From Escherichia coli (GTDB lineage Bacteria; Pseudomonadota; Gammaproteobacteria; Enterobacterales; Enterobacteriaceae): a stretch of 64,000 nt of DNA. Below are positions 3,706 to 60,668 of this stretch, in pieces (positions within the stretch are counted from its first letter, which is position 1; each line of letters begins with the position of its first letter). Made by a program: the position numbers and the translations under genes. The notes below the pieces were generated by a model that had not been told where the DNA came from, searched no databases, and saw nothing but the letters and a program-made list of their open reading frames with translations. Location of the stretch: NCBI RefSeq assembly GCF_051903065.1, contig NZ_CP178438.1, one strand, 5' to 3'.

Positions 3706-4569
3706 ATGATCCGCAGTATGACCGCCTACGCCCGGCGTGAAATCAAGGGTGAATGGGGGAGCGCAACCTGGGAAATGCGCTCGGTAAACCAGCGTTATCT
3801 GGAAACTTACTTTCGTCTGCCGGAGCAGTTCCGTAGCCTTGAACCTGTCGTTCGCGAGCGTATTCGTTCTCGCCTGACGCGCGGTAAAGTGGAATGTACC
3901 CTGCGCTATGAGCCAGATGTTAGCGCGCAAGGTGAGCTGATCCTCAACGAAAAACTGGCTAAACAGCTGGTAACTGCCGCGAACTGGGTAAAAATGCAGA
4001 GTGACGAAGGGGAAATCAACCCGGTTGATATTCTACGCTGGCCGGGCGTGATGGCAGCCCAGGAGCAGGATCTTGACGCCATTGCCGCTGAAATTCTCGC
4101 GGCGCTGGATGGTACGCTGGACGACTTTATTGTCGCGCGCGAAACCGAAGGTCAGGCACTGAAAGCATTGATCGAGCAGCGTCTGGAAGGCGTCACCGCC
4201 GAAGTGGTCAAAGTCCGCTCCCATATGCCGGAAATCCTGCAATGGCAGCGTGAACGCTTGGTCGCGAAGCTGGAAGATGCTCAGGTTCAGTTGGAAAACA
4301 ACCGTCTGGAGCAGGAGTTGGTTCTGCTGGCACAACGAATTGACGTTGCCGAAGAACTGGACCGCCTCGAAGCGCATGTCAAAGAGACCTACAACATTCT
4401 GAAGAAAAAAGAAGCCGTTGGTCGTCGTCTGGACTTTATGATGCAGGAGTTCAACCGCGAGTCGAACACTCTTGCGTCGAAGTCTATCAATGCCGAAGTG
4501 ACAAACTCCGCGATTGAGCTGAAAGTGTTGATTGAGCAGATGCGCGAGCAGATTCAGAATATTGAATAA
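3706..4569 (+). CDS. yicC: YicC family stress-induced protein
   Basis: 287 aa ORF MIRSMTAYARREIKGEWGSATWEMRSVNQRYLE... matches YicC. Confidence 0.93.
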   Translation: MIRSMTAYARREIKGEWGSATWEMRSVNQRYLETYFRLPEQFRSLEPVVRERIRSRLTRGKVECTLRYEPDVSAQGELILNEKLAKQLVTAANWVKMQSDEGEINPVDILRWPGVMAAQEQDLDAIAAEILAALDGTLDDFIVARETEGQALKALIEQRLEGVTAEVVKVRSHMPEILQWQRERLVAKLEDAQVQLENNRLEQELVLLAQRIDVAEELDRLEAHVKETYNILKKKEAVGRRLDFMMQEFNRESNTLASKSINAEVTNSAIELKVLIEQMREQIQNIE

Positions 4570-4729
4570 CTCGTAACGCCAATTCTTACTTTTCAGCCTT
4601 CACAAATGCCGCCCACTCAAACAGAGCGGCATTTTTCTTCCCCGCAACTTTCAATTCTGTTTTTCGTGCCTGCTCCAGATTTTGCGATGTTTTTTTGCCC
4701 AGCACACTGAGAACGTGAGATACTCACAA

Positions 4730-4745
4730 CTGTATATAAATACAG
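4730..4745 (+). promoter_or_regulatory. LexA (SOS) box CTGTATATAAATACAG upstream of dinD
   Basis: Perfect CTG-N10-CAG palindrome about 45 bp upstream of the dinD start; dinD is a known SOS gene. Confidence 0.8.
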
Positions 4746-4790
4746 TTACAGATTTACTTTCTTTGCAATTGATATCACATGGAGTGGGCA

Positions 4791-5615
4791 ATGAACGAAC
4801 ATCATCAACCTTTTGAAGAGATAAAACTGATTAATGCAAACGGAGCAGAACAATGGTCAGCAAGACAACTTGGGAAACTACTGGGTTATTCAGAGTATCG
4901 TCACTTTATACCTGTATTAACGCGCGCCAAAGAAGCCTGTGAGAACAGTGGTCACACAATTGATGACCATTTCGAGGAGATCCTCGATATGGTCAAAATT
5001 GGCTCAAATGCCAAAAGAGCATTAAAAGACATCGTACTCTCCCGCTATGCCTGTTACCTGGTAGTACAAAACGGCGACCCTGCGAAACCGGTCATTGCGT
5101 CAGGGCAGACTTATTTTGCTATCCAGACCCGACGGCAGGAGCTTGCTGACGATGAAGCATTTAAGCAACTTCGTGAAGACGAAAAGCGTCTGTTTCTGAG
5201 AAATGAGTTGAAAGAACATAACAAACAATTGGTTGAGGCAGCACAGCAAGCTGGGGTAGCGACAGCTACTGATTTCGCCATATTTCAGAATCATGGTTAC
5301 CAGGGGCTGTATGGTGGATTAGATCAGAAAGCTATTCATCAGCGGAAGGGGCTGAAAAAGAATCAGAAGATCCTGGATCATATGGGTTCAACAGAACTGG
5401 CGGCTAATCTCTTTCGAGCTACCCAAACAGAAGAAAAACTCAAGCGGGATGGCGTGAATTCAAAACAGCAAGCTAATACCACACACTTTGACGTGGGTAG
5501 CAAGGTGAGGCAAACCATTCAGGAACTTGGCGGAACCATGCCTGAGGAGTTGCCGACCCCGCAGGTCAGCATCAAGCAGTTGGAAAACAGTGTAAAAATT
5601 ACAGAGAAGAAATAG
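4791..5615 (+). CDS. dinD: DNA damage-inducible protein D
   Basis: Translation from ATG at 4791 (MNEHHQPFEEIKLINANGAEQWSARQLGKLLGY...) matches DinD; preceded by a LexA box. Confidence 0.92.
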   Translation: MNEHHQPFEEIKLINANGAEQWSARQLGKLLGYSEYRHFIPVLTRAKEACENSGHTIDDHFEEILDMVKIGSNAKRALKDIVLSRYACYLVVQNGDPAKPVIASGQTYFAIQTRRQELADDEAFKQLREDEKRLFLRNELKEHNKQLVEAAQQAGVATATDFAIFQNHGYQGLYGGLDQKAIHQRKGLKKNQKILDHMGSTELAANLFRATQTEEKLKRDGVNSKQQANTTHFDVGSKVRQTIQELGGTMPEELPTPQVSIKQLENSVKITEKK

Positions 5616-5906
5616 CAGAAACTAAAAACTCTTTTTGTTGATTGAGATACCCGATGCGTAAGCCAAAGTCCAGGTGCGGTGAACACAATGGCTAAACATT
5701 GCACCTTTCTTTTCCACCCCTCAATTTTAACCTATTTTTTCTTATGCATTTTCTCAGACAAGAAGTCAGAAGAATGCATCTACGCTACAGAAAATAGCGA
5801 TTTCACATAACTACAAGTTATCAATTTCCTCTCACCTTAAAAAATCTCAATCGTGACAATACGCACAAATCGCTACCCTGCCAGACAGATTTTTAGGGAG
5901 AGAACC

Positions 5907-9084
<3,178 letters not shown>

Positions 9085-9138
9085 ACCTGATTTCAGTATC
9101 ATGCCCAGTCATTTCTTCACCTGTGGAGCTTTTTAAGT

Positions 9139-9414
9139 ATGGCACGCGTAACTGTTCAGGACGCTGTAGAGAAAATTGGTAACCGTTTTGACCTGGTACT
9201 GGTCGCCGCGCGTCGCGCTCGTCAGATGCAGGTAGGCGGAAAGGATCCGCTGGTACCGGAAGAAAACGATAAAACCACTGTAATCGCGCTGCGCGAAATC
9301 GAAGAAGGTCTGATCAACAACCAGATCCTCGACGTTCGCGAACGCCAGGAACAGCAAGAGCAGGAAGCCGCTGAATTACAAGCCGTTACCGCTATTGCTG
9401 AAGGTCGTCGTTAA
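9139..9414 (+). CDS. rpoZ: RNA polymerase omega subunit
   Basis: 91 aa [31 protein letters not shown]... matches RpoZ. Confidence 0.96.
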
Positions 9415-9432
9415 TCACAAAGCGGGTCGCCC

Positions 9433-11541
9433 TTGTATCTGTTTGAAAGCCTGAATCAACTGATTCAAACCTACCTGCCGGAAGACCAAATCAAGCGTCT
9501 GCGGCAGGCGTATCTCGTTGCACGTGATGCTCACGAGGGGCAAACACGTTCAAGCGGTGAACCCTATATCACGCACCCGGTAGCGGTTGCCTGCATTCTG
9601 GCCGAGATGAAACTCGACTATGAAACGCTGATGGCGGCGCTGCTGCATGACGTGATTGAAGATACTCCCGCCACCTACCAGGATATGGAACAGCTTTTTG
9701 GTAAAAGCGTCGCCGAGCTGGTAGAGGGGGTGTCGAAACTTGATAAACTCAAGTTCCGCGATAAGAAAGAGGCGCAGGCCGAAAACTTTCGCAAGATGAT
9801 TATGGCGATGGTGCAGGATATCCGCGTCATCCTCATCAAACTTGCCGACCGTACCCACAACATGCGCACGCTGGGCTCACTTCGCCCGGACAAACGTCGC
9901 CGCATCGCCCGTGAAACTCTCGAAATTTACAGCCCGCTGGCGCACCGTTTAGGTATCCACCACATTAAAACCGAACTCGAAGAGCTGGGTTTTGAGGCGC
10001 TGTATCCCAACCGTTATCGCGTAATCAAAGAAGTGGTGAAAGCCGCGCGCGGCAACCGTAAAGAGATGATCCAGAAGATTCTTTCTGAAATCGAAGGGCG
10101 TTTGCAGGAAGCGGGAATACCGTGCCGCGTCAGTGGTCGCGAAAAGCATCTTTATTCGATTTACTGCAAAATGGTGCTCAAAGAGCAGCGTTTTCACTCA
10201 ATCATGGACATCTACGCTTTCCGCGTGATCGTCAATGATTCTGACACCTGTTATCGCGTGCTGGGCCAGATGCACAGCCTGTACAAGCCGCGTCCGGGCC
10301 GCGTGAAAGACTATATCGCCATTCCAAAAGCGAACGGCTATCAGTCTTTGCACACCTCGATGATTGGCCCGCACGGCGTGCCGGTTGAGGTCCAGATCCG
10401 TACCGAAGATATGGATCAGATGGCGGAGATGGGTGTTGCCGCGCACTGGGCTTATAAAGAGCACGGCGAAACCAGTACTACCGCACAAATCCGCGCCCAG
10501 CGCTGGATGCAAAGCCTGCTGGAGCTGCAACAGAGCGCCGGTAGTTCGTTTGAATTTATCGAGAGCGTTAAATCCGATCTCTTTCCGGATGAGATTTACG
10601 TTTTCACACCGGAAGGGCGCATTGTCGAGCTGCCTGCCGGTGCAACGCCCGTCGACTTCGCTTATGCAGTGCATACCGATATCGGTCATGCCTGCGTGGG
10701 CGCACGCGTTGACCGCCAGCCTTACCCGCTGTCGCAGCCGCTTACCAGCGGTCAAACCGTTGAAATCATTACCGCACCGGGCGCTCGCCCGAATGCCGCG
10801 TGGCTGAACTTTGTCGTTAGCTCAAAAGCGCGCGCCAAAATTCGTCAGTTGCTGAAAAACCTCAAGCGTGATGATTCTGTAAGCCTGGGCCGTCGTCTGC
10901 TCAACCATGCTTTGGGTGGTAGCCGTAAGCTGAATGAAATCCCGCAGGAAAATATTCAGCGCGAGCTGGATCGCATGAAGCTGGCAACGCTTGACGATCT
11001 GCTGGCTGAAATCGGCCTTGGTAACGCAATGAGCGTGGTGGTCGCGAAAAATCTACAACATGGGGACGCCTCCATTCCACCGGCAACCCAAAGTCACGGA
11101 CATCTGCCAATTAAAGGTGCCGATGGCGTGCTGATCACCTTTGCGAAATGCTGCCGCCCTATTCCTGGCGACCCGATTATCGCCCACGTCAGCCCCGGTA
11201 AAGGTCTGGTGATCCACCATGAATCCTGCCGTAACATCCGTGGCTACCAGAAAGAGCCAGAGAAGTTTATGGCTGTGGAATGGGATAAAGAGACGGCGCA
11301 GGAATTCATCACCGAAATCAAGGTGGAGATGTTCAATCATCAGGGTGCGCTGGCAAACCTGACGGCGGCAATTAACACCACGACCTCGAATATTCAAAGT
11401 TTGAATACGGAAGAGAAAGATGGTCGCGTCTACAGCGCCTTTATTCGTCTGACCGCTCGTGACCGTGTGCATCTGGCGAATATCATGCGCAAAATCCGCG
11501 TGATGCCAGACGTGATTAAAGTCACCCGAAACCGAAATTAA
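9433..11541 (+). CDS. spoT: Bifunctional (p)ppGpp synthetase/hydrolase SpoT (TTG start)
   Basis: 702 aa; first codon is TTG at 9433 (ttg tat ctg ttt gaa = LYLFE read as MYLFE); HD domain, synthetase, TGS and ACT regions recognisable. Confidence 0.95.
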   Translation: MYLFESLNQLIQTYLPEDQIKRLRQAYLVARDAHEGQTRSSGEPYITHPVAVACILAEMKLDYETLMAALLHDVIEDTPATYQDMEQLFGKSVAELVEGVSKLDKLKFRDKKEAQAENFRKMIMAMVQDIRVILIKLADRTHNMRTLGSLRPDKRRRIARETLEIYSPLAHRLGIHHIKTELEELGFEALYPNRYRVIKEVVKAARGNRKEMIQKILSEIEGRLQEAGIPCRVSGREKHLYSIYCKMVLKEQRFHSIMDIYAFRVIVNDSDTCYRVLGQMHSLYKPRPGRVKDYIAIPKANGYQSLHTSMIGPHGVPVEVQIRTEDMDQMAEMGVAAHWAYKEHGETSTTAQIRAQRWMQSLLELQQSAGSSFEFIESVKSDLFPDEIYVFTPEGRIVELPAGATPVDFAYAVHTDIGHACVGARVDRQPYPLSQPLTSGQTVEIITAPGARPNAAWLNFVVSSKARAKIRQLLKNLKRDDSVSLGRRLLNHALGGSRKLNEIPQENIQRELDRMKLATLDDLLAEIGLGNAMSVVVAKNLQHGDASIPPATQSHGHLPIKGADGVLITFAKCCRPIPGDPIIAHVSPGKGLVIHHESCRNIRGYQKEPEKFMAVEWDKETAQEFITEIKVEMFNHQGALANLTAAINTTTSNIQSLNTEEKDGRVYSAFIRLTARDRVHLANIMRKIRVMPDVIKVTRNRN

Positions 11542-21576: not shown

Positions 21577-22959
21577 TTAGTTCTGCACTTCTTGAGAGGT
21601 GAATTGTTGCTGGCAACGGCGTTTGCCCTGGGCCAGCTGTTCCATAACGGTTTTCAGATTGTGCGTCGTGAGTGAGTAGTAGCGTTTAGCGATAATCGCG
21701 CTCAGCAAATAACAGATCGCCGGAACAATCGTGAATAGCGCAATAATGATGCTAATCGTGGCGCTGTTCTGCGCTTTTTCTGCCGCATCATATCCGCCAT
21801 AAGCCAGCATCCAGCCGATAAGAGCGCCGCCGAAGGCCAACCCCAGTTTGAGCACAAACAGCGTGCCAGCAAAACTGATCCCGGTCAGGCGTTTACCATT
21901 GCACCACTCGCCGTAGTCGACGGTATCGGACATCATTACCCACTGGATAGGTGTCACCAGTTGATGCAACACACCAATCACGAAGATGAAGACAAACATA
22001 GTGATGCTGGCCTGCATGGGAACAAAGAACATCGCGAGGCTAATCACTGCCAGCAGGGCGTTCGTCCACCAGAAAATAGTGACTTTACATTTCCAGTCGG
22101 TCAGCGGTTTTGCCAGAGCGGAACCAATCAGGTTACCCACGCAATAAGTGGTGAGAAAAGCGACAAACACTTCCGGCGTACCCAAAATCCATGTGACGTA
22201 ATACATCATCGCTCCACCGCGTACGCACACCGCCAGGATATTGAAAATGGTTAGTAAACCGACAATCCGCCACTGGTCGTTTTGCCAGATATCACGTAAA
22301 TCTTCCCGCATAGACGTCGTTGTAGGTGGTGCTTCAACGCGTTCTTTAGTGGTGAAGAAACAGAATGCCAGCATCATGAATGCCACCACGGAAAGGACCG
22401 CGATACCACCCTGGAAACCGAGTGGTTTATTATCACCACCAATTAAATTAACCAGTGGCATCATCAGAACCGTAGAAAGCATGCCTCCCGCGGTCGCCAG
22501 CACAAAACGCCAGGATTGCAGCGAGATACGCTGAGTCGGGTCATTGGTGATTACACCACCCAATGCGCAGTAAGGGATATTGACGACGGTATAAAGTAAG
22601 GTAAGTAGGGTGTAAGTAATTGCTGCATAAATCATTTTTCCGTTCATACTGAGATCTGGCGTGCTATAGGCCAGTACACAGACGATCCCAAATGGCAGTG
22701 CGCCAAACAGTACCCACGGACGAAATTTACCCCAGCGAGAGCGCGTTCGATCGGCCAACAACCCCATGCAAGGATCGGAAATCGCATCCAGTGCACGAGC
22801 GACCAAAAACATGGTTCCGACAAATCCGGCAGGAATGCCAAAAATATCGGTATAAAAGAACATCATATATAACATTACGTTATCGAAAATAATGTGGCTG
22901 GCGGCGTCTCCCATGCCATAACCAATTTTCTCTTTAACGGACAACACTTCACTCTTCAT
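21577..22959 (-). CDS. yicJ: GPH-family sugar:cation symporter YicJ
   Basis: 460 aa membrane protein MKSEVLSVKEKIGYGMGDAASHIIFDNVMLYMMFFY...; adjacent to yicI as in the known yicJI operon. Confidence 0.92.
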   Translation of the reverse strand: MKSEVLSVKEKIGYGMGDAASHIIFDNVMLYMMFFYTDIFGIPAGFVGTMFLVARALDAISDPCMGLLADRTRSRWGKFRPWVLFGALPFGIVCVLAYSTPDLSMNGKMIYAAITYTLLTLLYTVVNIPYCALGGVITNDPTQRISLQSWRFVLATAGGMLSTVLMMPLVNLIGGDNKPLGFQGGIAVLSVVAFMMLAFCFFTTKERVEAPPTTTSMREDLRDIWQNDQWRIVGLLTIFNILAVCVRGGAMMYYVTWILGTPEVFVAFLTTYCVGNLIGSALAKPLTDWKCKVTIFWWTNALLAVISLAMFFVPMQASITMFVFIFVIGVLHQLVTPIQWVMMSDTVDYGEWCNGKRLTGISFAGTLFVLKLGLAFGGALIGWMLAYGGYDAAEKAQNSATISIIIALFTIVPAICYLLSAIIAKRYYSLTTHNLKTVMEQLAQGKRRCQQQFTSQEVQN

Positions 22960-23251
22960 CTACTTTTCCTTGATGCTATAGGGGTGCTGAGACCGATAAC
23001 GCATTTTGTAAACCATCCCTGTGAGAGCGAATATTCCGATATCTGGTTATTAATTTATGATTCTTGTTTTATGTGATCGTGGTAGCGTTAATTCCGCTCA
23101 TATGTCATTGTAAAATATGGATTTTATATGAACTATAATGCTTTCGTGATAATACGCTGCGTGTATTAGGCGGAAAAAACTGATCTGGGGGATGTAGAAA
23201 CTCAAGGAAGTAGCTATAATGCGCCCCGCCTCCATGTAGCAATCGAGGCGC

Positions 23252-23346
23252 GGAAGATCGTCGTCTCCGGTGAGGCGGCTGGACTTCAAATCCAGTTGGG
23301 GCCGCCAGCGGTCCCGGGCAGGTTCGACTCCTGTGATCTTCCGCCA
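23252..23346 (+). tRNA. selC: tRNA-Sec (selenocysteine tRNA, UCA anticodon)
   Basis: 95 nt sequence GGAAGATCGTCGTCTCCGGTGAGGCGGCTGGACTTCAAATCCAGTTGGGGCCGCCAGCGGTCCCGGGCAGGTTCGACTCCTGTGATCTTCCGCCA read directly; matches E. coli selC. Confidence 0.97.
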
Positions 23347-23645
23347 GTTTACCTCTTCTGAACTCTCCCAATGTCAATAAATCTCTTCTAATCCCTTGTA
23401 TATCAGTATTTATTTGTATCCAGAGGTCAACCTACTTCACCCCGTATCAAGTTTCTTTTGGGGGTACTTTAGGGGGTGTTATTTCCTATTGAAATACCAG
23501 CACCCCCATAATAGGAAAAATGTGATATATAACAACGGCTTTTAACAACATCTTTGTTATACAAGGGGTGTATTGGGGGTATCAGGTTAGTTACTGGCAG
23601 AAATCCCCCTCAGGAACATGAATTCATCAAAAGCCGGAGGATGTC

Positions 23646-24422
23646 ATGGCATTAACCGATATCAAAGTGAAAACCGCAAAACCCAAAGACAAACCCTATA
23701 AGCTTGCTGATGGCGGCGGTATGTATCTACTGATTAACACTAATGGTTCTAAATACTGGCGCATGAAGTACCGCTTTGCTGGTAAAGAAAAGATGCTTTC
23801 TATTGGCGTATACCCCGATGTAACGCTAGCCGATGCTCGCGAGAAACGCAGTGAAGCCAGGAAACTCCTCGCTGCTGGAGGCGATCCAGGGGAGGCAAAA
23901 AAGGAAGAAAAAATCGCGCAGCAAATGAGTCTGCAAAATACGTTCGAGGCTATTGCTCGCGAATGGCACCAGTCAAAAGCCGATCGGTGGTCATTACGCT
24001 ATCGTGATGAAATCATTGATACCTTTGAAAAAGACATTTTTCCCTACATTGGCAAGCGCCCTATTGCCGAAATCAAACCAATGGAGTTACTGGAAGCACT
24101 GCGTAAAATGGAAAAACGTGGAGCTCTGGAGAAAATGCGCAAGGTCCGCCAGCGCTGTGGTGAGGTGTTCCGCTATGCAATTGTTACTGGCCGGGCAGAC
24201 TATAACCCAGCCCCCGATCTTGCCAGTGCTTTAGCTACACCGAAAAAAGTACATTTTCCCTTTCTTACTGCTAATGAACTTCCCCACTTCCTCAACGATC
24301 TGGCGGGTTATACCGGAAGTATAATCACTAAGACAGCTACTCAGATCATTATGTTAACCGGCGTACGAACACAAGAACTGCGTTTTGCACGCTGGGAAGA
24401 TATCGATTTTGAGACAAAATTG
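23646..24422 (+). pseudogene. P4-type (tyrosine recombinase) integrase, N-terminal about 259 codons only; truncated by IS insertion
   Basis: MALTDIKVKTAKPKDKPYKLADGGGMYLLINTNGSKYWRMKYRFAGKEKMLSIGVYPDV... is a typical P4-like integrase N-terminus; reading frame runs into the IS inverted repeat and stops; catalytic C-terminal half is absent. Confidence 0.85.
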
Positions 24423-25479
24423 GGCTTTGTTGAATAAATCGAACTTTTGCTGAGTTGAAGGATCAGATCACGTATCTTCCCGACAACGCAGACCGTTCCG
24501 TGGCAAAGCAAAAGTTCAAAATCACCAACTGGCCCACCTACAATAAAGCCCTCATCAACCGTGGCTCCATAACTTTCTGGCTGGATGATGAAGCTATTCA
24601 GGCCTGGTATGAGTCAGCAACACCTTCTTCACGAGGCAGACCTCAGCGCTATTCTGACCTTGCCATCACGACTGTGCTGGTCATTAAACGCGTATTCAGG
24701 CTGACCCTGCGCGCTGCGCAGGGCTTTATTGATTCCATTTTTTCTCTGATGAACGTTCCGCTACGCTGCCCGGATTACAGCTGTGTCAGCAGGCGGGCAA
24801 AGTCGGTTAATGTCAGTTTCAAAACGCCCACCCGGGGTGAAATCGCACACCTGGTAATTGATTCCACCGGGCTGAAGGTCTTCGGTGAAGGCGAGTGGAA
24901 AGTCAAAAAGCATGGCCAGGAACGCCGCCGTATCTGGCGTAAGCTGCATCTCGCCGTTGACAGTAAAACACATGAAATCATCTGCGCTGACCTGTCGCTG
25001 AACAACGTTACGGACTCAGAGGCCTTCCCCGGGTTAATCCGGCAAACCCACCGGAAAATCAGGTCAGCCGCCGCCGATGGCGCTTACGATACCCGGCTAT
25101 GTCACGATGAACTGCGGCGTAAGAAAATCAGCGCGCTTATCCCTCCCCGAAAAGGTGCGGGTTACTGGCCCGGTGAATATGCAGACCGTAACCGTGCAGT
25201 GGCTAATCAGCGAATGACCGGGAGTAATGCGCGGTGGAAATGGACAACAGATTACAACCGTCGCTCGATAGCGGAAACGGCGATGTACCGGGTAAAACAG
25301 CTGTTCGGGGGTTCACTGACACTGCGTGACTACGATGGTCAGGTTGCAGAGGCTATGGCCCTGGTACGAGCGCTGAACAAAATGACGAAAGCAGGTATGC
25401 CTGAAAGCGTGCGTATTGCCTGAAAACACAACCCGCTACGGGGGAGACTTACCCGAAATCTGATTTATTCAACAAAGCC
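24423..25479 (+). mobile_element. IS903-like insertion sequence (IS5 family), 1057 bp with 18 bp terminal inverted repeats
   Basis: Left end GGCTTTGTTGAATAAATC at 24423-24440 and its exact inverse GATTTATTCAACAAAGCC at 25462-25479; single DDE transposase ORF inside. Confidence 0.88.
24500..25423 (+). CDS. IS903-family DDE transposase
   Basis: ORF ...AKQKFKITNWPTYNKALINRGSITFWLDDEAIQAWYESATPSSRGRPQRYSDLAITTVL... with DDE-type motifs (DSTGLKV, ADGAYDT); start uncertain (GTG at 24500 or upstream TTG at 24455). Confidence 0.85.
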   Translation: MAKQKFKITNWPTYNKALINRGSITFWLDDEAIQAWYESATPSSRGRPQRYSDLAITTVLVIKRVFRLTLRAAQGFIDSIFSLMNVPLRCPDYSCVSRRAKSVNVSFKTPTRGEIAHLVIDSTGLKVFGEGEWKVKKHGQERRRIWRKLHLAVDSKTHEIICADLSLNNVTDSEAFPGLIRQTHRKIRSAAADGAYDTRLCHDELRRKKISALIPPRKGAGYWPGEYADRNRAVANQRMTGSNARWKWTTDYNRRSIAETAMYRVKQLFGGSLTLRDYDGQVAEAMALVRALNKMTKAGMPESVRIA

Positions 25480-25767
25480 GGATTTCATCTGAACAACGGC
25501 CCACAGGCCGATCGACTTGCCGACCTGGAAAGAATGCTGCATCTGTTCAGCGGCAAACCGATCCCCGACAACCGGGAAAACATCACTATTCATCTGAATG
25601 AGCACATCCGGTCTGTTCAGGGTAAAGAGTGCTATGAAGATGAAATGTTCAGCATCAGATACTTTAAGAAGGGCTCCGCGCACATCACGTTCAGGAAACC
25701 AGAACTGGTTGATCGGCTAAATGATATTATAGCCAGACACTATCCGGAAATGTTACCTTCACAATAG
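25480..25767 (+). pseudogene. Orphan 3' fragment of an unidentified island gene, open from the IS edge (C-terminal 95 codons)
   Basis: Frame is open from the first base after the IS right end (GFHLNNGPQADRLADLERMLHLFSGKPIPDNRENITIHLNEHIRSVQGKECYEDEMFSIRYFKKGSAHITFRKPELVDRLNDIIARHYPEMLPSQ*); no upstream start or RBS context; family not recognised. Confidence 0.4.
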
Positions 25768-25899
25768 AGTACTAAGAATTGATTCAATTATGTATTTTAG
25801 CTTCATTCCTTCATGCAAAATCATTTGGGGGTTCTTATGGGGGTTACTCATTTATCCAACACATACAAATTATTTAAGATCAATGCATTAATACTTATA

Positions 25900-25922
25900 T
25901 TCGACTCCTGTGATCTCCGCCA
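25900..25922 (+). repeat. Imperfect direct repeat of the selC 3' end (attR-like island boundary)
   Basis: ttcgactcctgtgatctccgcca matches the tRNA 3' end ttcgactcctgtgatcttccgcca (23323-23346) except for one missing T. Confidence 0.75.
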
Positions 25923-26559
25923 AAATGCCTCTCCTGACGTTCTCCAACCCCTTGTAATACTGTCAATCCAGATATTTTCTACTGCTCAATATTCAATCGG
26001 CTTCAGGAATACCTGGTCTAAGGTTTTGTGATGGACGATGAGCGGCTGAAGAATCCGCCTGTCGGTTCTTCTGTCCTCGAACGCATCCGCGATATTCACG
26101 CCAGTATGCGCCGTGTTTATTTGCAGGTGATTTGCCCCCCTGCTGACTCTCAGCCAACTGTATCGCCATTAAGGTGAAGATGTTGTTTTACTCGCCCCAG
26201 AACACCCTTTTTTATACGACTATTCTATTTCTTTAACCGCTGGCGAAAAAAAACTGACTATAAACTTCACCAATAATCAGACTGCCATCAAGATTAATTT
26301 GTTCATTTAATATATCAAATCAACTTGTTTTATTTTTACTATCAAAAATAGCTCATTGCCTTACTATAATTAATATATAAATTCGGTAATTAATTCTTAA
26401 CATGCTTTTACTAATAATCTCAATTGCTGGCCCTATAATATTGCGCTAGCATTGCTTTCTGGTTGTATCAGCGATACTCAAAAATTCTTAATACAATACT
26501 CATTCGACTGGTACTTATTTGTAACTCAGTTATATTTTTTCGCCCGGTGATTCAGAAGA

Positions 26560-27744
26560 ATGCAAAAAACGGCTACCACTCCATCAAAAATACTTGATCT
26601 CACTGCCGCGGCATTTTTACTTGTCGCCTTTCTGACGGGTATTGCGGGCGCTCTTCAGACTCCTACCCTAAGTATATTCCTCGCAGATGAACTGAAAGCC
26701 CGTCCTATAATGGTAGGTTTTTTCTTCACCGGTAGCGCTATTATGGGAATTCTGGTCAGTCAATTTCTGGCAAGGCACTCCGATAAACAAGGCGACCGTA
26801 AATTACTGATTCTGCTATGTTGCTTATTTGGAGTGCTGGCCTGCACGCTTTTTGCGTGGAATCGCAACTACTTCATTCTCCTCTCAACGGGCGTACTTCT
26901 GAGTAGTTTTGCTTCCACCGCAAACCCGCAAATGTTCGCCCTCGCCCGTGAACACGCCGACAGAACAGGCCGTGAGACGGTCATGTTCAGTACATTTTTA
27001 CGTGCTCAGATCTCGCTTGCCTGGGTTATCGGGCCACCGCTCGCTTATGAACTGGCAATGGGATTTAGTTTTAAAGTGATGTATCTCACCGCTGCCATCG
27101 CATTTGTTGTTTGCGGACTGATAGTCTGGTTGTTTTTGCCATCAATACAAAGAAATATTCCTGTCGTTACCCAACCCGTAGAAATTTTACCCTCCACCCA
27201 CAGGAAGCGGGATACGCGGCTACTTTTTGTGGTCTGTTCAATGATGTGGGCGGCGAATAATCTCTACATGATAAATATGCCGCTATTTATTATTGATGAA
27301 CTGCATCTAACCGATAAACTGGCTGGAGAAATGATTGGTATCGCTGCCGGTCTGGAAATTCCGATGATGTTAATCGCAGGCTATTACATGAAACGTATTG
27401 GCAAGCGACTATTAATGCTCATTGCTATCGTGAGTGGAATGTGTTTTTACGCCAGCGTACTCATGGCGACGACTCCGGCGGTTGAGCTGGAATTGCAAAT
27501 TCTTAATGCCATCTTCCTTGGTATTCTCTGTGGTATCGGCATGCTTTATTTTCAGGACTTGATGCCTGAAAAAATAGGCTCTGCGACAACGTTATATGCA
27601 AATACTTCACGCGTCGGCTGGATTATCGCCGGCTCTGTTGACGGAATTATGGTTGAAATCTGGAGCTACCATGCGTTGTTCTGGCTGGCGATAGGGATGT
27701 TGGGTATTGCGATGATTTGCCTGCTGTTTATTAAAGATATTTAG
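26560..27744 (+). CDS. setC: Sugar efflux transporter SetC (MFS)
   Basis: 394 aa MQKTATTPSKILDLTAAAFLLVAFLTGIAGALQTPTLSIFLADELKARPIMVGFFFTG... matches SetC. Confidence 0.92.
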   Translation: MQKTATTPSKILDLTAAAFLLVAFLTGIAGALQTPTLSIFLADELKARPIMVGFFFTGSAIMGILVSQFLARHSDKQGDRKLLILLCCLFGVLACTLFAWNRNYFILLSTGVLLSSFASTANPQMFALAREHADRTGRETVMFSTFLRAQISLAWVIGPPLAYELAMGFSFKVMYLTAAIAFVVCGLIVWLFLPSIQRNIPVVTQPVEILPSTHRKRDTRLLFVVCSMMWAANNLYMINMPLFIIDELHLTDKLAGEMIGIAAGLEIPMMLIAGYYMKRIGKRLLMLIAIVSGMCFYASVLMATTPAVELELQILNAIFLGILCGIGMLYFQDLMPEKIGSATTLYANTSRVGWIIAGSVDGIMVEIWSYHALFWLAIGMLGIAMICLLFIKDI

Positions 27745-49890: not shown

Positions 49891-53719
<3,829 letters not shown>

Positions 53720-53864
53720 TTCCACATCCTCTTTTCTCAATTCTGTAAGTAGGAAGCCTGATTGGTTATGCGGCAGGCCTGGAGCGAGGATAGGAAGATG
53801 CGATCGGCAGAACATGACGACCCAATGGGATTCGTGATCGCTTTCATGCTTTTCGTTGGGCGGT

Positions 53865-53898
53865 AGAGATCTACGTTTTCGCGAAAAAGTAGACCTCT
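53865..53898. promoter_or_regulatory. 34 bp near-perfect palindrome agagatctacgttttcgcgaaaaagtagacctct in the glvC-yidP divergent intergenic region (candidate operator)
   Basis: Reverse complement differs at 4 of 34 positions; centred on the perfectly palindromic core ttttcgcgaaaa; sits between divergent glv operon and GntR-family yidP. Confidence 0.45.
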
Positions 53899-54014
53899 GT
53901 GAGCACAGGTACACAGCATCGAACACATCTTTAAAAATAAGATGTTTTTTCAATCGATTAAGCAGAACTTGTGGGCGCATTACCCGGGCTTGCAGGCAAA
54001 AAAGAGATCTAGAG

Positions 54015-60558: not shown

Positions 60559-60668
60559 CCAACGCGCTTCACATCGCCCACCAGCAGGATGTAAGAGAGC
60601 GCGCCAATCAACGCGACGGCGGAGATATAAACCAGTGCCGGGGCAAAGCCATAGCCTTGCAACAGATA
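60555..60668 (-). pseudogene. dgoT: 3'-terminal remnant (about 37 codons) of D-galactonate transporter gene dgoT; rest of dgo operon absent
   Basis: Minus-strand translation [37 protein letters not shown] matches the C-terminus of DgoT as recalled; an in-frame stop immediately precedes it; its stop codon overlaps the cbrA stop. Confidence 0.6.

Follow-up and report, generated by a model that had tools for sequence, protein, structure and literature searches.

The selC gene is a classic hotspot for genomic islands, and the present locus raises the question of which element occupies the DNA directly downstream of it and how this element was reduced to so little. The analysis covered a window of 64,000 nucleotides of an Escherichia coli genome. 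The 2.6 kb of DNA next to selC is very probably the non-autonomous leftover of a P4/CP4-type island which integrated at the 3' end of selC and was gutted around a copy of IS903B.

The insert at selC and its boundaries

The tRNA-Sec gene selC (anticodon UCA) was located at 23252..23346 by ARAGORN and Rfam (RF01852, 83.8 bits) and is identical to selC of MG1655. It lies on the plus strand, as do the attachment arms, the attR core, the gene remnants and the insertion sequence described below. Alignment with MG1655 revealed an insert of 2,576 bp (23347-25922) between the selC 3' end and the K-12 backbone. In a blastn search with the whole window, no MG1655 match was obtained for 23347-25899, and similarity restarted at a duplicated tRNA end; a three-way alignment placed the K-12 backbone from 25923 onwards. 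Comparison of the selC-to-setC interval with MG1655 thus bears out the original prediction that 2.6 kb foreign to the K-12 backbone follows selC, as MG1655 lacks the insert, and every element predicted within it was found in place. The selC site of MG1655 holds nothing but a fragment of yicT (rhuM), and the uninterrupted K-12-type junction was present in 2,493 of the 5,426 complete genomes of the survey sample. The insert is accessory in the sense used for P4/CP4 islands, the site being empty in other strains. Its base composition is not distinct from that of the neighbouring DNA.

As in P4/CP4 islands, the insertion is located at a tRNA 3' end and is bounded by a direct repeat. The attL core is formed by the final 24 bases of selC (23323-23346). 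The attR core (25900..25922), which was recognised by the alignment, the repeat and the MG1655 match, repeats the selC 3' end in direct orientation over 23 bp, with the loss of one T; it reads TTCGACTCCTGTGATC-TCCGCCA and retains 23 of the 24 tRNA-end bases, a single base being deleted. Allowing for up to 3 mismatches, no further copy of the 24-mer selC end was detected in the window, and none is expected by chance; a second, older copy beyond the rhuM fragment, sought with the same tolerance, was absent. The imperfect 23-bp attR-like copy that had been predicted is thus present, but its imperfection is a trait of the island family. We rejected decay as its cause, since the right-end junction that includes it was found in 682 of the 5,426 genomes and is 100% identical in strains with full islands.

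It had further been claimed that the insert is the only clearly accessory DNA in the window. Two more differences from K-12 were identified, namely an additional 492 bp at 51011-51502 and the absence of a 4.75-kb dgoRKADT segment at 60660/60662, and the claim holds only in the narrower form that the insert is the sole mobile-element DNA found.

Attachment arms, gene remnants and IS903B

The region between selC and the integrase gene (23347..23645) was initially described as a regulatory leader. Its GGGGGT repeats, of a 12-bp period and laid out as in the attP of satellite phage P4, favour an interpretation as the attL arm. A tandem pair of putative arm-type 12-bp repeats, TCTTTTGGGGGT ACTTTAGGGGGT, is located at 23454-23477, followed by a putative inverted copy (23502-23510) and a putative single copy (23572-23580). 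The attR arm (25768..25899) carries a putative tandem 12-bp arm-type pair, TCATTTGGGGGT TCTTATGGGGGT, at 25821-25844, 55 nt ahead of the core, and a direct repeat (D1) connects 23454-23477 with this pair. All six matches to the motif WWWGGGGGT in the 64-kb window fall within the two island ends. The tandem repeats lie about 107 nt from the core on the integrase side and 55 nt on the far side, the corresponding distances in the annotated P4 attP being 112 and 53 nt. In strain 439, where the attL and int 5' region is 94.6% identical, all four repeat sites are kept. From this layout we infer that the repeats are putative arm-type sites of the integrase. The Rfam scan of 22900-26700 returned tRNA-Sec only, with no structured RNA in the supposed leader. 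Promoter and terminator scans gave counts not above those of shuffled sequence and no usable int promoter, while a GGAGG ribosome-binding site was found 5 nt upstream of the int ATG. The 300 bp 3' of selC should be annotated as an attachment-site arm and not as a regulatory leader.

The attL arm is followed by the 5' 259 codons of a gene for a P4-family tyrosine integrase (23646..24422), as defined by the list of open reading frames, Pfam and identity to intact genes. The reading frame itself extends from 23646 to 24437 and consists of the 259 integrase codons (to 24422), four codons encoded by the IS and a stop. Up to 24422 it is 100% identical to the intact genes of strains 33-6 and BE2-5. 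The intact protein (WP_001218910.1) has 394 aa, of which 259 codons are kept here, and RefSeq lists the gene as a pseudogene 'missing C-terminus'. Pfam analysis detected the P4-type domain set of Arm-DNA-bind_3 (PF13356), Phage_int_M (PF22022) and Phage_integrase (PF00589), the last over profile positions 2-58 of 172 only, and over its full length the intact orthologue shares 45% identity with P4 Int (E=2e-115). A P4-family integrase with the arm-binding DUF4102/PF13356 N-terminus is thus encoded next to the tRNA gene. The prediction of a P4-like integrase cut after about 259 codons was correct, and the similarity to P4-family integrases on which it depended is clear. The domains for arm and core binding and the first catalytic Arg are present in the fragment, which ends before the HxxR motif and the nucleophilic Tyr that the intact protein has past codon 259. 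A recombinase functional in excision or integration is not encoded, as the catalytic profile is covered at positions 2-58 of 172 only. The integrase lacks most of its catalytic domain, and the remnant therefore cannot excise by itself: it is a P4/CP4 island member by descent and not a functional element.

On the other side of the IS, the orphan gene tail noted in the original prediction was identified as the 3' end of a DUF4942 gene (95 codons and the stop, 25480..25767) by Pfam (PF13708, E=4e-28, profile positions 105-190 of 190) and by its identity to an intact gene. It is a gene fragment, comprising 95 of 281 codons; it is 100% identical to the intact gene of strain 33-6, with the break after codon 186. 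A comparison with NCBIfam yielded no family for DUF4942. RefSeq annotates the tail, like the integrase fragment, as a pseudogene, in this case 'missing N-terminus'. DUF4942 is the terminal gene of CP4/P4-type islands.

Between both fragments lies an element of the IS5 family (24423..25479; 1,057 bp) with perfect 18-bp terminal inverted repeats. Its transposase gene (24500-25423) is intact and encodes 307 aa from a GTG start, with matches to NCBIfam transpos_IS5_2 (E=5e-107) and to Pfam DDE_Tnp_1_5/DDE_Tnp_1. The length of about 1,057 bp, the 18-bp inverted repeats and the single DDE transposase of about 307 aa are those of the IS903 group. RefSeq names the element IS903B in strain 23CRST031, and no amino-acid difference was seen over the 307 codons compared with the gene so annotated. 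What had been called an IS903-like element is indeed present and is, more exactly, IS903B itself. Its transposase is the only potentially active gene of the remnant. The IS is not flanked by a 9-bp target-site duplication, the left flank being ACAAAATTG and the right flank GGATTTCAT, whereas the IS903B copy of strain 729_141114_1_15 has TAGTGTAAC on both sides. This absence is evidence for an associated deletion and not against the identity of the IS. A 3.4-kb query comprising selC, the int fragment, the IS, the DUF4942 tail and backbone gave 22 matches in the genome of 23CRST027 (median 3 per genome), which is consistent with many IS903B copies in that genome. A one-base homopolymer error within the IS, typical of a long-read consensus, sets the RefSeq record apart from the window.

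Intact relatives and origin of the scar

The search for strains with a complete island sharing both the integrase and the downstream fragment led to strain 33-6, which harbours an intact selC island of 11,161 bp. The DNA on both sides of the IS in the window is 100% identical to it. The island of 33-6 encodes, in this order, the integrase, a TPR protein, a phosphoethanolamine transferase, an outer-membrane protein, an hns-like pseudogene, an acuR-like regulator and RadC, followed by yeeT, the toxin-antitoxin genes cbeA/cbtA, DUF5983, DUF957 and DUF4942. The window lacks 9,642 bp of this island, and IS903B occupies the exact place of the missing DNA (2,576 = 11,161 - 9,642 + 1,057), such that integrase codon 259 is joined to DUF4942 codon 187 across the element. 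Lost are the C-terminus of the integrase, the TPR protein, the phosphoethanolamine transferase, the outer-membrane protein, the CbtA/CbeA pair and others. The scar with lost cargo that had been postulated is thus seen directly by comparison with the intact island. In strain BE2-5, about 30 kb lies between island ends equally identical to the window, and the ancestral island of this lineage could have exceeded the 33-6 type.

This integrase is found at selC in 1,545 of the 5,426 complete genomes (about 28%). The exact scar, defined by the int-IS903B-DUF4942 junctions, was detected in two of them only, 23CRST027 and 23CRST031, both at selC. Strain ECNB21-M121 is near-clonal with the window, with a single mismatch over 3.9 kb to the left and none over 7.6 kb to the right. 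Its version of this island contains an identical IS903B of unchanged orientation, at two other junctions and likewise without duplication. This difference in junctions shows that erosion of the island is recent and ongoing in this lineage, in which IS903B appears to be multicopy. In further close relatives, strains 21EVA, MB30, C3728 and ECCNB20-2, the same island is eroded with IS1 boundaries. Other hits pairing IS903B with DUF4942 (H9-H11) were discarded as unrelated, being located in a serX island or elsewhere with DUF4942 intact; among those followed up, EC596 alone has a comparable junction, in a serX island, 1 bp off and in a divergent DUF4942 paralogue.

In the favoured scenario, an ancestral island of the 33-6 type would have integrated by site-specific recombination into the selC 3' end. 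IS903B would then have inserted within the island, and one or two IS903-mediated adjacent deletions, by intramolecular replicative transposition, would have removed the DNA up to the present junctions. Adjacent deletions are common for IS903 and erase target duplications (PMC11708052). The order and number of these events are our reconstruction, because the precursor is absent from the complete genomes: at the two junctions of the window and the two of ECNB21-M121, none of the 5,426 contained IS903B as a simple insertion with its 9-bp duplication, and the hits obtained were generic IS ends only. No cargo function is left; of the attachment sites, the two cores and every arm-type repeat are still in place.

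The missing duplication would be explained equally well by a homologous, RecA-mediated crossover between IS903B copies inserted in direct orientation at int codon 259 and at DUF4942 codon 186, leaving a single hybrid IS without matching duplications; such recombination is a standard cause of missing duplications (PMC11708052). A double insertion is plausible in a genome seemingly rich in IS903B, and the IS903-like element in the serX island of EC596, 1 bp off the same DUF4942 position, hints at an IS903-attracting site. This route is nevertheless rather unlikely, as it needs two independent insertions of the same orientation within 10 kb, neither of which is present singly with its duplication in any complete genome, and the junctions of ECNB21-M121 would demand two further insertions. 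The lack of a precursor in the complete genomes would also fit 'IS-Del', in which the deletion occurs earlier or simultaneously by another route and the IS enters the break without duplication. It was proposed for an IS5-family element of the IS903 subgroup in E. coli C, where a new 62-kb deletion has such an IS in its middle and lacks a duplication (PMC11708052). The mechanism is unproven according to its own authors (PMC11708052), the breakpoints show no microhomology (ATTG|TGGG vs ATGG|GGAT) and the sequence is equally compatible with adjacent deletion; we regard it as improbable here.

Even less credible is an assembly artefact, in which two IS903B copies of an intact or larger island were collapsed by the assembler. 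IS903B appears to be multicopy in this genome and the RefSeq record contains the homopolymer error mentioned above, but the separately assembled complete genomes of 23CRST027 and 23CRST031 agree in structure, long reads normally span 9.6 kb, and comparable truncations with an IS at the boundary are seen in several unrelated assemblies. Finally, the presence of both att cores and both arms could indicate that the 2.6-kb unit was from the outset a small mobile element, integrated as such at selC. This is effectively refuted: both non-IS genes are fragments whose breaks coincide with the IS ends and which show 100% identity to full-length genes of the 11-kb island, no functional recombinase is encoded, and the unit occurs in 2 of 5,426 genomes only, both at selC.

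Relation to known elements

The gutted island shares with satellite phage P4 the integrase (45% identity), the int gene abutting an attachment arm, integration into a tRNA 3' end, and a layout in which tandem 12-bp repeats, putative arm-type sites in the island, contain GGGGG and flank the att core at near-equal distances. P4 differs in its integration at leuX, in its core, and in repeats ending in GGGGGC, while the island repeats end in GGGGGT. P4 genes for replication, capsid size and immunity are found neither in this island nor in its intact relatives. The cryptic K-12 elements CP4-6, CP4-44 and CP4-57 belong to the same family of tRNA-associated islands in progressive decay, with the right-hand module radC/yeeS-yeeT-cbeA-cbtA-yeeW; unlike the selC remnant, they are located at other tRNA or tmRNA genes (thrW, ssrA).

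With the selC islands LEE, SHI-2, LPA, PAI I536 and GIselC17584/1, the locus has in common the attachment site, a P4/CP4-type integrase beside the tRNA gene, mosaic cargo, a 3'-terminal gene of the DUF4942/Z1226 type and a direct repeat of the tRNA end (PMC6174562). It differs from them as a remnant without cargo, with the integrase cut at codon 259 and 9.6 kb replaced by IS903B. Its intact 11-kb relative of the 33-6 type carries the phosphoethanolamine transferase, the outer-membrane protein and the CbtA/CbeA module rather than genes of LEE or for aerobactin. As in known IS903 adjacent or IS-bounded deletions, one IS copy is kept at the junction and the 9-bp duplication is gone (PMC11708052). 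The scar is ordinary genome decay of an already known kind and not a new system; its significance is small, adding one more route of IS-driven erosion of a very common selC island.

As a long shot, the scar may not be inert. The 259-residue integrase fragment, with its arm-binding and core-binding domains but no catalytic tyrosine, could bind to the arm and core sites and might thus act as a dominant negative hindering re-occupation of selC by incoming islands with an integrase of the same family. Conversely, an intact cognate integrase acting in trans might excise the mini-island. Both ideas are raised because the att cores, the arm repeats, the native upstream region and the 259-residue reading frame are all kept. 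The exact int-IS903B-DUF4942 junctions can be used as a lineage marker.

Extent and ends of the selC insert

The window was compared by blastn with MG1655 positions 3,810,000–3,880,000 and was found to be collinear except at three places. One of them directly follows tRNA-Sec (selC, 23252–23346; ARAGORN and Rfam), where 23347–25899 has no counterpart in K-12. Aligned three ways with the selC end and MG1655, the distal end of the insert reads TTCGACTCCTGTGATC-TCCGCCA at 25900–25922, which is the terminal 24 bases of selC without one T; from 25923 on the sequence is the one located directly 3' of selC in MG1655. The insert therefore covers 23347–25922 (2,576 bp), exactly as predicted. No further match to the 24-mer of the selC end was obtained in the window with up to three mismatches allowed. 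The missing T of the attR core (25900–25922) is a trait of the island family, since the junction of DUF4942 tail, attR and backbone in which it is contained occurs in 682 of the 5,426 complete E. coli genomes surveyed, with 100% identity in strains with an intact island. Rfam, promoter and composition scans of the interval gave no sign of anything hidden.

The non-coding region 23347–23645 displays short repeats with a GGGGGT core, namely a tandem pair with a 12-bp period (23454–23477), an inverted copy (23502–23510) and a single copy (23572–23580). A repeat finder paired the tandem copies with a second 12-bp tandem pair (25821–25844) in the non-coding attR arm (25768–25899). All six matches of WWWGGGGGT in the 64-kb window fall inside two short stretches beside the core copies. 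The same design is annotated in the P4 genome, where tandem 12-bp 'attP arm sequence repeats' (ATCATTGGGGGC ATAATTGGGGGC and AACAGTGGGGGC ACAAAAGGGGGC) are located 112 nt (int side) and 53 nt (other side) from a 20-bp core, compared with 107 and 55 nt in the window, and where one inverted copy lies near the start of int. With this layout, 23347–23645, initially described as a regulatory leader, is better read as the attL arm, and the parallel with P4 suggests that the repeats are integrase-binding sites. Strain 439 has kept all four repeat sites, with an attL-plus-int-5' region 94.6% identical to that of the window. In a divergent selC integrase locus of strain PNUSAE008512 (88% identical, positions 324–560), a 103-bp deletion in the attL arm begins at one GGGGGT repeat and finishes at another, as might result from recombination between such repeats.

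Content of the remnant and lost island DNA

The integrase gene is limited to its first 259 codons (23646–24422), its frame continuing for four codons inside the next element up to a stop at 24437. Pfam detected Arm-DNA-bind_3 (E=9e-31), Phage_int_M (E=3e-36) and the first third only of the Phage_integrase catalytic domain (profile positions 2–58 of 172). The intact integrase of strain 33-6 (394 aa, WP_001218910.1) was used for comparison. It is 45% identical to P4 Int over a full-length alignment (E=2e-115), which supports the predicted P4 type. Its best phage relatives (49–51%) belong to the Sf6/HK620/CUS-3 'IntS' group and to Klebsiella and Erwinia phages. In the alignment with P4 Int, the conserved motif GHGFRH and the tyrosine of RGTYNH, assigned by the general pattern of tyrosine recombinases, lie past residue 259, and the fragment is thus devoid of the nucleophile.

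The following element (24423–25479, 1,057 bp) has perfect 18-bp terminal inverted repeats and an intact transposase ORF (24500–25423, 307 aa from GTG). The transposase matched NCBIfam transpos_IS5_2 (E=5e-107) and showed no differences from the protein named IS903B by RefSeq over the 307 codons compared; the element, originally called 'IS903-like', is indeed an IS903 element, and more precisely IS903B proper. The nine bases on either side are unlike (ACAAAATTG vs GGATTTCAT), hence there is no target-site duplication. This absence is meaningful, since TAGTGTAAC stands on both sides of a copy with 99.6% identity in strain 729_141114_1_15. At 25027–25030 the window reads CCCC, while the RefSeq sequences of strains 23CRST027 and 23CRST031 appear to read CCC (in each of the two, the match falls one base short of the query), and RefSeq annotates the 23CRST027 transposase as frameshifted. 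As the ORF is intact in the window, CCC in the public assembly is probably a homopolymer consensus error.

Beyond IS903B lie the 3'-terminal 95 codons of a DUF4942 gene (25480–25767; Pfam E=4e-28, profile positions 105–190 of 190). Comparison of 23200–26600 with the selC region of strain 33-6 by blastn gave two blocks, 23200–24422 and 25480–26600, each 100% identical and 9,642 bp apart in 33-6. Counted from the end of selC through attR, the 33-6 island is 11,161 bp long; 11,161 − 9,642 + 1,057 = 2,576. Loss of cargo from an island, as predicted, is thereby supported by both flanks of the IS. Relative to 33-6, the window has lost the integrase C-terminus, a TPR protein, a small pseudogene, a phosphoethanolamine transferase, an outer-membrane protein, an H-NS-like pseudogene, an AcuR-like regulator, PglZ and antirestriction gene fragments, radC, yeeT, the YeeU/CbeA antitoxin, the CbtA toxin, DUF5983, DUF957 and codons 1–186 of the DUF4942 gene. 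Equally identical ends can bound larger islands of other content, such as the ~30-kb island of strain BE2-5 (LacI/MFS/GH31 sugar module, autotransporter, several IS elements) or that of 729_141114_1_15 (iha and more). The 33-6 type is our best guess for the ancestral island of this lineage, because its left 4–6 kb are present in the near-clonal strain ECNB21-M121 and in 21EVA, a close relative, and because the right end of the window matches 33-6 exactly.

Origin of the deletion

IS903B is located exactly at the 9.6-kb deletion and the target duplication is absent. Most likely, IS903B would have inserted within the island and an IS903-mediated adjacent deletion would have followed; such deletions are described as common for IS903 and as one of the standard ways in which duplications are lost (PMC11708052). 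A simple IS903B insertion with a 9-bp duplication was found in the complete genomes at none of the four junctions of the window and ECNB21-M121. As this precursor was not found, recombination between two IS copies, or capture of the IS at a break, may have been the sub-mechanism instead.

The backbone of ECNB21-M121 differs from the window by 1 of 3,895 bases on the left and 0 of 7,575 on the right. This strain (NZ_CP083585.1, 3801–9200) harbours an identical IS903B in the same island and orientation, with other junctions and again no duplication. On the left, the junction falls at position 4106 of the island, within the phosphoethanolamine transferase gene; on the right, it corresponds to window position 26426, 503 bp past attR. 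The int and TPR genes are retained intact, together with a truncated phosphoethanolamine transferase. The deletion starts at island position 4107 and reaches 503 bp beyond attR, so that the IS now lies 134 bp upstream of setC. Both deletions overlap at island positions 4107–10718. A single ancestral IS903B within this interval, followed by lineage-specific flanking deletions, would explain both strains; independent insertions would explain them as well. A 3.4-kb query spanning the remnant matched 22 places in 23CRST027 and 16 in ECNB21-M121, the median genome having 3; a high IS903B load would fit these counts.

In the serX (tRNA-Ser) island of strain EC596 (NZ_CP156718.1, 6001–7341), an IS903-type element (96.7% identical) links the end of ycdT, a GGDEF gene, to a paralogous DUF4942 tail, the rest of the island being gone. 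The DUF4942 junction is one base off that of the window; this single case hints that DUF4942 genes hold a preferred IS903 target.

Occurrence in other strains and further differences from K-12

selC is a frequent site of islands with CP4-type integrases, and a Z1226-type gene occurs near the 3' terminus of selC insertions (PMC6174562). Among the surveyed genomes, 2,493/5,426 have the uninterrupted K-12-type junction and 1,545/5,426 have the integrase family of the window adjoining selC. The whole scar was recovered in two of the 5,426 only, 23CRST027 and 23CRST031 (human faeces, Ecuador), where the pieces already carry RefSeq pseudogene annotations (integrase 'missing C-terminus', DUF4942 'missing N-terminus'). 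The same island was trimmed by IS1 in MB30, C3728, ECCNB20-2 and 21EVA; the IS1 truncations in several strains are independent of one another. In MB30, IS1 connects an integrase gene cut close to its 3' end with backbone DNA immediately upstream of the rhuM (yicT) fragment; in 21EVA, IS1 follows the hns-like pseudogene and lies directly against setC. Interpretation of the interval as a scar holds as a whole with minor corrections, and the scar is of a known kind, already present in annotated public genomes, with an ordinary explanation.

Just past attR, the shared backbone contains a RhuM-family gene fragment (26028–26177; yicT in K-12), a RefSeq pseudogene with an internal stop and a Pfam Virulence_RhuM score of 23.3 bits, under the threshold of 33.7. 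As rhuM belongs to Salmonella SPI-3, which is likewise located at selC, the fragment may be a much older island scar beneath the recent one. No second copy of the tRNA end was found for it in the window with up to three mismatches.

The insert, noted as the only clearly accessory DNA in the window, is not its only difference from K-12: two more places were identified, at 60660/60662 and 51011–51502. At the former, 4.75 kb (MG1655 3,870,544–3,875,296), the whole dgoRKADT D-galactonate operon, are absent between the cbrA end/dgoT 3' remnant and the region upstream of yidX. There is no IS at this junction (60660–60662), which recurs in 413/5,426 complete genomes, including one O157:H7 strain. At 51011–51502, on the yidL/glvG boundary (region 50781–53980), the window has 492 bp more than MG1655. 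On the minus strand, an intact ORF of 440 aa, equal in length to the '6-phospho-alpha-glucosidase' annotation of 21EVA, occupies the place of the K-12 glvG pseudogene, and one 625-aa ORF is found where K-12 annotates glvB and glvC apart. K-12 looks like the decayed state at this locus.
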